From NCBI GenBank assembly GCA_951406725.2, contig OX597832.1, forward strand, positions 5,952,001 through 6,016,000: 64,000 nt of DNA, written 5' to 3'. Positions 30,876 to 58,566 of this stretch are shown here, piece after piece. Source of the stretch: Octopus vulgaris (taxonomy: Eukaryota). The notes below the pieces were generated by a model. It was not told the origin of the DNA, ran no database searches, and saw only the letters and a program-made list of their open reading frames with translations. The position numbers and the translations under genes are program-made. Every line of letters begins with the position of its first letter. Positions within the stretch are counted from its first letter, which is position 1.

Positions 30876-32139
30876 TCTATATCTACATATATATATATAC
30901 AGAAATATATATATCTAAATATATATACATCTATACAAGTGCATACATATACATATGACTGTGTATGCTTGCGTGTGTGTACGTATGTATATATATATAT
31001 AGACACTCCAAAAGATACCTCACCATCTCACTATCCGAATATATATGAAGTTCAAAGGATGACCTATATTCACAATTATAAAATCAAATGGCTCATAAAA
31101 GAACGTGCGTTCTCCCGGTATTAATTTCCCCAGAGGTAGTAATTGTCTCTCGGAGAAGTATAATATCTTGTTACAGTCTTTTGCCATTTTTAAAAAGAAA
31201 GGTCAGAATTGGTGAAATATTACTGACACTTCCATCAATATTTTCTAAAGAACTCACAGCTAGCTAAACCACTTTATTCCCCACATAATGTATTTGCCAT
31301 TCTCCTCAAAAGATACTCACATATTGAAAATTGTTTATTTTTTGAAGAAACACATTCAGTTACCTTTCAACCATAAACCTTCATTAGCAATAGTGAATTC
31401 CCTTGCTTTGATGTGCTTAATAATACGGGGGTCATAATATATCATGTTTTCTGTATGTAAATTGATTAATATATCATGTGTTCTGTTGAATAAATGAACG
31501 TGTAAAGCATTTTTTAAAGACTATTAACCACCAAACAAATCTCAATAGGAGATAACATGTATACGCTCTCTCTCTCTCTCACACACACACACACAAACGC
31601 GTGCACCCTCTCTCTCTCCCTCCCTCTCTTTCTCTCTCTCTCCCTCCCTCTCTCTGTCTCTCTCTCTCATACACACATACAAACAGAGGCACACATGTTT
31701 ATTTGATAACTCTGATGCAGCTCCACATTACTTAAACTTTCGTGAACGTGGGCACATTCACTCATCAGATGTTCGCAATAAGAAAGGAGATAACTTAAAA
31801 GAAATTTAAAGTGGCTTCTAGTTATTTAAGCATCCATTAGTCAATTCAGATCATAGTTGTTTATGCTATCAAGCGGCCGTAGTTGTTTTATTCTTCGATC
31901 TATGAGGAGCAGTCAGTATGTCGGAGTCATTTTGTCGCCATTTTGCAGGAATATATTTGGCGACACCAGTTCTTTAGACTGGGTGTCACAAGTGGAAGAA
32001 CGGACAAGTTGTTGACGTGAATTAATTCATTGTGTGACCTAAACAGACCAATGGTGGCTTAAAAATCTGGATGTCATTTTAAATTTCCTCCACATCTTAT
32101 GAGGAGGAAGAGTCCTACGTCCACGAAATTTACATATAT

Positions 32140-49771: not shown

Positions 49772-49973
49772 CCGGAGTAAACACATAAATGTGAAACAAG
49801 GTGGAAAAAAGAGTACTCAAATACCAGTGGTAGAGTAATATGCTTTATTTAAAGCAGCAGAAAATTCAACAAAATCTGTTACTCTGAGTTTCTCGTTGCC
49901 GTTCATCAGACAGAACGGCAACGAGAAACTCAGAGTAACAGATTTTGTTGAATTTTCTGCTGCTTTAAATAAA

Positions 49974-49979
<6 letters not shown>
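49772..49979. mobile_element. Foldback HHR element, family H1, copy 1
   Basis: Arms 49838-49904 and 49913-49979 are inverted, with an 8-nt spacer, a ~66-bp one-sided extension and (TA)n on both sides. Confidence 0.9.
49876..49913 (-). ncRNA. Type I hammerhead ribozyme motif
   Basis: CUGU-CUGAUGA-A-CG(GCAA)CG-A-GAAA-CUCAGAG-UA-ACAG. Intact CUGAUGA, GAAA and UH core, helix I CUGU/ACAG, helix III ACUC/GAGU. Confidence 0.8.
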
Positions 49980-52923: not shown

Positions 52924-53010
<87 letters not shown>

Positions 53011-53015
<5 letters not shown>

Positions 53016-53409
53016 ATATTAATTAGAGACAAAACCACTATTATGCAAATCAAACAAAGAAAGACTTAATCCAATACATAAAAAATTTTATATAAATTAA
53101 ATATAATTAAGATTAATTAAGATATACACTACGATCGTTTCTTGTCACTTCAATGGACATTCATCAGGTAAGGTCTTGAAAACCACCTGATGAATGTCCA
53201 TTGAAGTGACAAGAAACGATCGTAGTGGATATCTTAATTAATCTTAATTATATTTAATTTATATAAAATTTTTTATGTATGGGATTAAGTCTTTCTTTGT
53301 TTGATTTGCATAATAGTGGTTTTGTCTCTAATTAATATTATATTATATTTTACTATAAAATTGGATTCAATCATAAATCTGATTTTCCCTGTAAATTTGG
53401 ATTTATTCC

Positions 53410-53412
<3 letters not shown>
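53011..53412. mobile_element. Foldback HHR element, family H2
   Basis: Arms ~53011-53169 and 53185-~53345 are near-perfect inverted copies, with a 15-nt spacer, a ~65-bp one-sided extension and (TA)n on both sides. Confidence 0.92.
53183..53228 (+). ncRNA. Type I hammerhead ribozyme motif (mirror copy on - strand at ~53127-53170)
   Basis: CCAC-CUGAUGA-A-UGUC(CAUUGAAGU)GACA-A-GAAA-CGAUCG-UA-GUGG. Helix I CCAC/GUGG, palindromic helix III ACGAUCGU, predicted cleavage after A53224. Confidence 0.85.
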
Positions 53413-53451
<39 letters not shown>

Positions 53452-53455
<4 letters not shown>

Positions 53456-53900
53456 GAATTCACAAAGAAAATAATAAAAGACGAAGACAGGTGCTACAGA
53501 CAACAAAAGCTCGGGAAGTGAAAAAGTCTTTAACGTTTCGAGCCTACGCTCTTCCACAGAAAGGAACACAGAAAAAAAAACAAGGAGAGAAAATAAAGAA
53601 TATGTAGTGGCTAGCGATCTATCATGGCGAATGACCTGAGTGTCATTGCCGAGTCGGATGTTTCGGAGGTGTTCCGCGAACCAGGCAGCCAAGCGGCGTC
53701 CCGTTTGCCGGATGTTTATAGAAGGGCAGAGAGATCAGGAGATGCAGTAGATGACATTGGTAGAAGTGCAGGTGAAGGAGTCGGTGATGTGATAGGGTCG
53801 ATGGTGGATGCCGGTGAGGAGGGTGGTGTTGTAGAGGTAAGGGCAAGTGCGGCAGCGTGGGCAGGGGAAGGGGAAGGACGACTGGCTTCTTTCAGTTTCC
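53452..53900 (-). mobile_element. Penelope-like remnant: GIY-YIG endonuclease fragment plus 3' terminus
   Basis: FTCTSTNVIYCIS*SLCPSINIRQTGRRLAAWFAEHLRNIRLGND, followed by a terminal segment with an HHR-like motif at 53528-53563 and (TA)n. Confidence 0.88.
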
Positions 53901-56644: not shown

Positions 56645-57500
56645 GGACCGTGCCTCTGATCTTTCTCCGCGTGCCTGCCCCACCCTTATTCATCTCCCGT
56701 TCCCCTTCCCTACCACCCCTCCACCCTGTCCCTCCAACGCACCATTCTCCGAGCCTTCCGGCGACTCCAGTCAGACGCCTCCACCTCGCACATCTTCCCT
56801 AACCTACACCTTTCCTCTTTCAAACGAGCCAATAACCTGCCACCTAGTCCACAGTTTCTGCCCTACCCTCACCTCCCAGCCTGGCTCCTCCCACTATACC
56901 CGCTCACGGTATCGCACCCGTTCCTACTCTCCAACACAACCATCCTCACAGGCACCACGTCACCGACTCCTTTACCTACACCTCGAGTAATGTCATTTGC
57001 TGCATCTGCTGCTCTCTCTGTCCTGGGAGGCCGATTGGCTGACCGGTTCGCGGAGCACCTCCAGGACATTAGACTCGGTAATGACAACTCAGTTTCGCGC
57101 CATTTCCGATCTACCGCTCATTCGCTACAACATCTGTTTGTGTTCGGACTGTCTCTACACAGGGGCCACCTGGACTCCCGCCTTCGCTGTGAACAGAAAT
57201 TAATCTTCTCTCTTCGTTCCTTTGTTGCATATGGGCTCAACTCATCTACTCTCTTCATCTGACACCAAACTCATCTCTCTTCACTTAACGCCAATCCCAC
57301 AGGGATTCTCACTCACCTCTCACACCCTCTACCTACATACCGGCATACCCCCTCGGTACCCTCACCCACACTCACCACTATACACACACCGATGCACACT
57401 GTTCAACTCATCACTCACTTCACTCACCATTTCACACCCACCCACAACACCTTCCCACTCCAAACACACTTCTCAGCACCCACACAATCCACCATGATCC
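56645..57500 (+). mobile_element. Penelope-like remnant (GIY-YIG domain to stop, CA-rich 3' UTR)
   Basis: SNVICCICCSLCP..GRLADRFAEHLQDIRLGND..VSRHF...H....L.V.GL......SRLRCEQKLIF.L.....GLN. Same family as 53452-53900. Confidence 0.88.
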
Positions 57501-58330: not shown

Positions 58331-58332
<2 letters not shown>

Positions 58333-58566
58333 GGAGTAAACACATAAATGTGAAACAAGGTGGAAAAAAGAGTACTCAAATACCAGTGGTAGAGTAATAT
58401 GCTTTATTTTAAGCAGCAGAAAATTCAACAAAATCTGTTACTCTGAGTTTCTCGTTGCCGTTCAACAGACAGTTTTTGCTAGAATCTAGCAAAAACTGTC
58501 TGATGAACGGTAACGAGAAACGAGTAACAGATTTTGTTGAATTTTCTGCTGCTTAAAATAAAAGTA
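58331..58566. mobile_element. Foldback HHR element, family H1, copy 2
   Basis: Starts with the same ccggagtaaacac as 49772. Arms 58403-58483 and 58485-58563 surround a 1-nt centre. HHR motif on + at 58496-58530, (TA)n flanks. Confidence 0.9.

Follow-up and report, generated by a model that had tools for sequence, protein, structure and literature searches.

Penelope-like elements (PLEs) are known to leave inverted, 5′-truncated copies and one-sided tails, as described in the part of Craig et al. 2021 (PMC8557442) on which we draw, and the supplement to that paper contains an element, Penelope-13_HM, in which an inverted 5′-truncated copy places a hammerhead on each strand. In the same part, Hydra-clade PLEs are characterized by DKT instead of DKG, no GxKF, a CxCx5C linker and RWK, together with CxxC and CxH around a conserved E and N, with CCHH absent. 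For Poseidon PAc of Anolis, the relevant sections of Frangieh et al. 2024 (PMC11167929) report that two RT start sites bound the tail and that both strands are extended; uncut RNA is the main substrate, and a protein dimer is predicted. Opposite-strand hammerhead pairs 100-700 bp apart are described for Schistosoma, and in the Drosophila virilis Penelope the intron end adjoins helix I, according to the pertinent passages of Cervera and de la Pena 2014 (PMC4209133). Arkhipova et al. 2013 (PMC3846280), in the portion cited here, put forward self-priming for rotifer Penelope elements, possibly on an antisense template, with a sense template left possible. In the portions of this literature used here, the inverted ends and tails of PLEs, their intron keeping and the role of their hammerheads are treated as open. 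Among the papers listed by full-text searches, with subscription papers and Repbase outside their reach, none has a title or abstract opening on PLE twin priming or spliced pLTR stubs.

We analysed a window of 64,000 nt (the whole stretch of DNA under study, from contig OX597832.1 of Octopus vulgaris), in which an insertion at 53011-53412, non-coding and without the ORF of the element, is almost certainly a PLE stub (Table 1). The initial annotation had described an inverted repeat of ~160 bp whose arms are 15 nt apart and which is flanked by (TA)n. The repeat is real, with arms of 159 nt each (53011-53169 and 53185-53343) around a spacer at 53170-53184 (15 nt), and arm-versus-arm alignment gave 2 mismatches, at 53228/53126 and 53281/53073; the (TA)n flanks were likewise found. 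An asymmetry had gone unnoticed, in that a tail of ~70 nt is present on the right arm only. In full-length copies this tail region is 5′ UTR, ~70 nt upstream of the ATG. Because both element ends lie within (TA)n, a target-site duplication is unreadable, and in the window copy the TA also blurs the outer boundary of the tail-less arm.

Table 1. Coordinates of the two-armed insertion and its flanks within the window.
Feature	Position	Strand	Remark
Left (TA)n target tract	52935..53010	.	
Tail-less arm: inverted 5′-truncated pLTR, outer end at putative start site 1	53011..53169	-	
Hammerhead, core and helices II/III intact, helix I of 3 pairs including one wobble	53126..53171	-	
AAG, equal to the final 3 nt of exon 1	53170..53172	+	
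Tailed arm: pLTR (exon 2), splice acceptor to putative start site 1	53173..53343	+	
Type I hammerhead	53183..53228	+	predicted scissile bond 3′ of A53224
Self-complementary helix III	53216-53223	+	
One-sided tail, between putative start sites 1 and 2	53344..53412	+	
Right (TA)n target tract	53413..53451	.	

A complete hammerhead had been claimed for each strand. On the + strand this was borne out by a full core (CUGAUGA/GAAA/UA) and three helices, with helices I and II of 4 bp each and a palindromic helix III; the predicted cut falls at A53224/G53225, and the dimer duplex formed through helix III has an energy of -10.6 kcal/mol. On the - strand the core is kept, with a predicted scissile bond at 53130/53129, but the claim of completeness fails at helix I, which is cut short by the junction, which took two bases from its 5′ strand, and by the substitution at 53126, which strikes its 3′ strand. 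What remains are the pairs C-G, A-U and U.G and a U/U mismatch, and duplex folding of helix I gave -1.7 kcal/mol for the - copy versus -4.6 kcal/mol. A hammerhead descriptor run on both strands had 2 matches in the window (53187 on + and 31768 on -), whereas none of 60 two-base block shuffles had any. The first match is the + arm; the second, at ~31725-31772 (-), combines a helix I of 4 bp with a helix III that contains a mismatch. The Rfam search named as a check turned out negative, with no hammerhead at the gathering threshold nor at E<=10, and the Rfam matches were generic hairpin (miRNA) models only, all below gathering.

For single arms, the minimum-energy fold was not the hammerhead (z -0.98 and +0.23). 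A longer helix I spanning the splice junction was considered and rejected, as duplex folding gave just the 4-bp helix. Because the splice acceptor lies 9-10 nt ahead of helix I, spliced and unspliced forms have the same 4-bp helix I. The whole palindrome has a folding energy of -245 kcal/mol, and in a read-through transcript, where cleavage would compete with the long hairpin, these models make it plausible that the hairpin would dominate. The family spreads long perfect hairpins genome-wide and may be a source of dsRNA if these are read through.

By sequence identity, the arms are the pLTR of RT/GIY-YIG elements that this genome contains, which supports the earlier suggestion of an extreme PLE product made of two ribozyme-bearing termini. 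Compared with its own genome (2.8 Gb), the arm had 93-100% identity at the best 40 of 1,364 candidates, and one arm 20-mer had 2,188 exact genomic matches (0 for the control). Layouts of the form pLTR-tail-ORF-UTR-pLTR were present at loci L031, L197 and L199/L200. The order in L031 is inverted pLTR, pLTR, tail, ORF, 209-nt UTR, pLTR and tail, with one frameshift in the ORF, and L197 has an intact ORF of 840 aa between two pLTRs, with 86% identity between this ORF and the frame in L031. Nested introns bring the unspliced unit to 5.9-6.3 kb; the spliced unit in L031 measures 2.98 kb.

The L197 ORF contains DKT (aa 128), YRDD, a CxCx5C linker (aa 691), YIG, CxxC (aa 797) and, close to the C-terminus, CxH, as well as RIKWK at aa 41, which resembles RWK without being literally equal to it; a motif search for GxKF and for H-x(2-4)-H had no match (CCHH absent). 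Pfam, NCBIfam and PDB sequence searches with the ORF gave no RT or GIY-YIG match. Atlas look-alikes of the ORF were found at 0.95-0.98, and some of their members carry GIY-YIG, HTH_animal or RVT_1; it is because of the motifs and these look-alikes that we assign the ORF as RT/GIY-YIG. The source element would, on the evidence of its motifs, be a Penelope-like retrotransposon of Hydra-clade character. L197 (2910-5432) also has, between its RT and nuclease parts, an extended Asn-rich region, a feature known from rotifer Penelope ORFs in the part of PMC3846280 consulted. At another locus (L052, 1644-2214), the region upstream of exon 1 is present as one direct and one inverted copy that overlap slightly, which is an inversion within the element and not a second pLTR arm.

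The repeat common to the copies starts at a splice acceptor, TTTTAG/GTCTTG (the slash marks the junction), and at four loci a 27-nt exon 1 is followed by a GT donor. The GT-AG intron of this donor A is 1,116 nt long in L045; a donor B in the 3′ UTR has the same acceptor. For this subfamily, we counted 43 exact junctions spliced from exon 1 (donor A) and 33 that retain the intron, and the exact spliced junctions of donor B numbered 3, all in one locus. An intron close to the pLTR promoter that genomic copies still carry is a trait of endonuclease-bearing PLE insertions, and the family shows it. Among the exon-1 arms, 11/36 end at one same base and 33/36 at or inside that base. This common end probably marks the transcription start, and it would fit an initiator consensus. 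The stub would accordingly correspond to 5′ UTR of the element's RNA. If exon 1 does begin at the transcription start, the stubs would be without a promoter and thus dead ends, and the present locus would be one dead scrap among many in the genome. The window copy has three bases ahead of the acceptor, one of them informative, and this single base, which separates AAG from the intron end, hints weakly at a spliced origin.

The rules that govern the ends of the family became apparent across copies. Of the 66 loci listed for contig C1, we took the first 60 by position, and these comprised 44/60 divergent pairs and 16/60 single arms. One tail-less and one tailed end were present in 43/44 pairs of the sample (p 2.6e-12 versus independent choice), and in 89/90 over all fetched loci, some of which were found by a tail-bearing query; L153 has two tailed ends. 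Arm lengths and junctions differ between copies. In 29 of the 78 pairs whose centres are short, it is the tailed arm that extends further 5′, and in 21 it is the tail-less one; another 7 are ambiguous and 21 unclassed. Splice forms were compared in pairs with both arms past the acceptor (n=20, of which 5 had one unclassed arm), and the form was equal on both arms in 15/15 classifiable pairs (8 intron, 6 exon 1, 1 UTR), which is in keeping with a single RNA or with sister RNAs that share a source.

Overall, we regard the insertion as very probably a 5′-truncated, two-armed pLTR insertion, and its likely origin is dual-end priming on sense RNA, with two fixed start positions. The competitor that survives best is fold-back, in which self-priming of one cDNA or antisense RNA supplies the inverted arm, as put forward for the rotifer elements. 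Fold-back accounts for the 29 pairs with a longer tailed arm and is in keeping with the short palindromes and microhomologies found at many central junctions, but it is contradicted by the 21 pairs in which the tail-less arm extends further 5′ and its partner is tailed, and an antisense RNA as its substrate is at odds with the 43 exactly spliced junctions, which require a sense, spliced template. We consider it unlikely, and the counts argue against an antisense-template model for the octopus family. Because a longer tail-less arm with a tailed partner is not makeable from one cDNA, two primings are the simpler account, and two independent primings are what we think probably took place.

In dual-end priming as we envisage it, the element's enzyme would nick a (TA)n tract on each strand; priming would occur at site 1 from one DNA end and at site 2, ~70 nt downstream, from the other. 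By analogy with the in vitro work on another PLE, the two outer ends would correspond to two RT start sites. Both cDNAs would proceed toward the RNA 5′ end and would then be joined head to head at their 3′ ends, often via short microhomology. The two cDNAs may come from one RNA molecule or from co-bound sister RNAs, and the predicted role of the ribozyme lies in the parent RNA, where it would act as a dimer or be assisted by protein. We infer the priming order and the number of templates from end products. For an origin of both arms from one RNA molecule the chances appear evenly balanced, as two RNAs transcribed from the same source locus would likewise yield equal splice forms. A fuller version, in which one enzyme dimer on one sense RNA, spliced or unspliced, primes both cut ends, always one at site 1 and the other at site 2, and the hammerhead cuts few templates in vivo, is offered tentatively and falls somewhat short of an even chance. 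If true, the family would preserve a genomic record of how PLEs insert, no antisense template would be needed to account for the inverted pLTR, the tail on one side or the kept intron, and hammerhead cutting would explain those cDNA ends, and the 32-nt piece of foreign sequence, that lie exactly at the scissile bond. The one-of-each ends, the matched splice forms and the exact splicing yield sharp predictions for the existing in vitro assay.

The initial annotation had also considered a non-autonomous ambisense ribozyme retroelement, that is, a palindrome (or retrozyme) that spreads as a unit. A hammerhead core on both strands, the high copy number and the proposal that retrozymes derive from PLE pLTRs, argued in the part of bioRxiv 10.64898/2026.07.22.740005 seen here, would suit such a unit, and two central junctions do recur at unlinked loci on different contigs (L022/L027 and L189/L190). 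The central junction of the window, however, is single-copy in the genome at <=1 mismatch, arm lengths and junctions are variable, and similar centres amount to only 5 pairs among the 78, of which one is a local duplication and two are ~90% alike. Furthermore, the loci examined had no head-to-tail tandem units, their pairs being divergent, the - ribozyme is damaged and 61/98 arms in the C1 sample end before the ribozyme, so that we hold this reading to be very improbable; re-mobilisation of a two-armed unit may occur occasionally and would be rare. Three near-identical two-armed stubs (L194, L195; C15:56.71-56.73 Mb) lie 6.5 and 12.6 kb apart and are probably a local duplication. An assembly artefact is a negligible prospect, since the arms differ at 2 positions with a tail on one only and dozens of loci obey the same asymmetric rule with different junctions, a family fold-back junction also being present in the contigs of one run (possibly not independent of the assembly), while the window junction was not recovered in the contigs of 4 public runs, an absence that is uninformative.

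Conservation of the core and helices, raised as a check in the initial annotation, was seen in an alignment of 15 variants, hand-picked from 40 (116 matches) with most single-copy point variants left out; 165/165 cells were paired, a value reached by 1/500 shuffles, and both this choice of variants and the search pattern, which itself required the core, make the alignment lean toward structure. Helix III alternates between two palindromes by a double change (G-C in 4, A-U in 11), the one double-change pair, and between subfamilies loop II and the flanks vary with helices I and II kept. In the C1 sample, 3/37 arms that reach the cleavage site start exactly at it (rough Poisson p 0.002-0.011). 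We also counted by hand the first 100 of 199, of 158 and of 151 pattern matches. Among these matches listed, 7 events lie <=2 nt from the cleavage site versus 9 at 3-9 nt (p 0.18-0.21), and all but 8 arms of the 300 run >2 nt beyond the cut site. Most templates were presumably uncut when copied, and the arm ends, like the insert described next, at most hint at ribozyme cleavage in vivo.

At one locus (L188, 570-605; C12:30435300-30436400), a 32-nt piece of another repeat sits exactly at the scissile bond, and 21 nt of it are also present in the second arm. Its identification as a U6-type RNA end was rejected, since the insert derives from a different repeat, likewise flanked by TA, for which there were 35 matches at <=2 mismatches, 8 of them examined. 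This TA-flanked repeat family (L202-L208) often has an inverted second arm, and no Rfam family matched it.

Other PLE remains are present in the window. The 3′ end of a different PLE family (53452-53884, -) was inserted in the same (TA)n tract; its GIY-YIG remnant and a second ORF of L031 have 66% identity, and at 53559 it has a variant hammerhead core, CUGUGGA. A decayed copy of this other family lies at 56696-57262 (+) and is 55% identical to it in translation. Two more (TA)n-flanked two-armed stubs, of another family, are located at 58331-58566 and 49772-49975; their hammerhead cores are divergent, and the tail, of ~70 nt, is again one-sided.

Compared with the Hydra-clade PLEs as covered in the part of PMC8557442 used here, the octopus family shares the C-terminal GIY-YIG-type nuclease, DKT, CxCx5C, CxxC/CxH, the absence of CCHH and the (TA)n targets, and its hammerhead shares the 4-bp helix I, the extra base after CUGANGA and the short helix III. 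It differs in that its hammerhead equals no motif listed in File S2 of that paper letter for letter, in its tail of ~70 nt versus 30-40, and in its unspliced unit of 5.9-6.3 kb, with a window insertion that has no ORF. Like the minimal PLE hammerheads in the pertinent passages of PMC4209133, the octopus ribozyme is of type I, located in pLTRs and equipped with a palindromic helix III; unlike them, it has a helix II of 4 bp without the G10.1-C11.1 pair and an acceptor 9-10 nt before helix I. The non-LTR retrozymes are similar in consisting of short, non-coding repeats with a type I hammerhead and in their relation to PLE pLTRs, but they are head-to-tail tandem units, whereas the octopus palindrome is a head-to-head pair with a variable junction. 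With Poseidon PAc, the family has in common two internal start sites (putative in the octopus) that delimit the tail, AT-rich targets, presumed extension of both target strands, a template RNA that is mainly uncut and a predicted protein dimer; that element belongs to another clade, its start sites lie in the ORF and not in the 5′ UTR as in the octopus, and the relevant sections of PMC11167929 describe no difference in start site between the strands and no one-of-each rule per insertion. The two-armed architecture is already published, and the octopus family is a Hydra-type addition to it.
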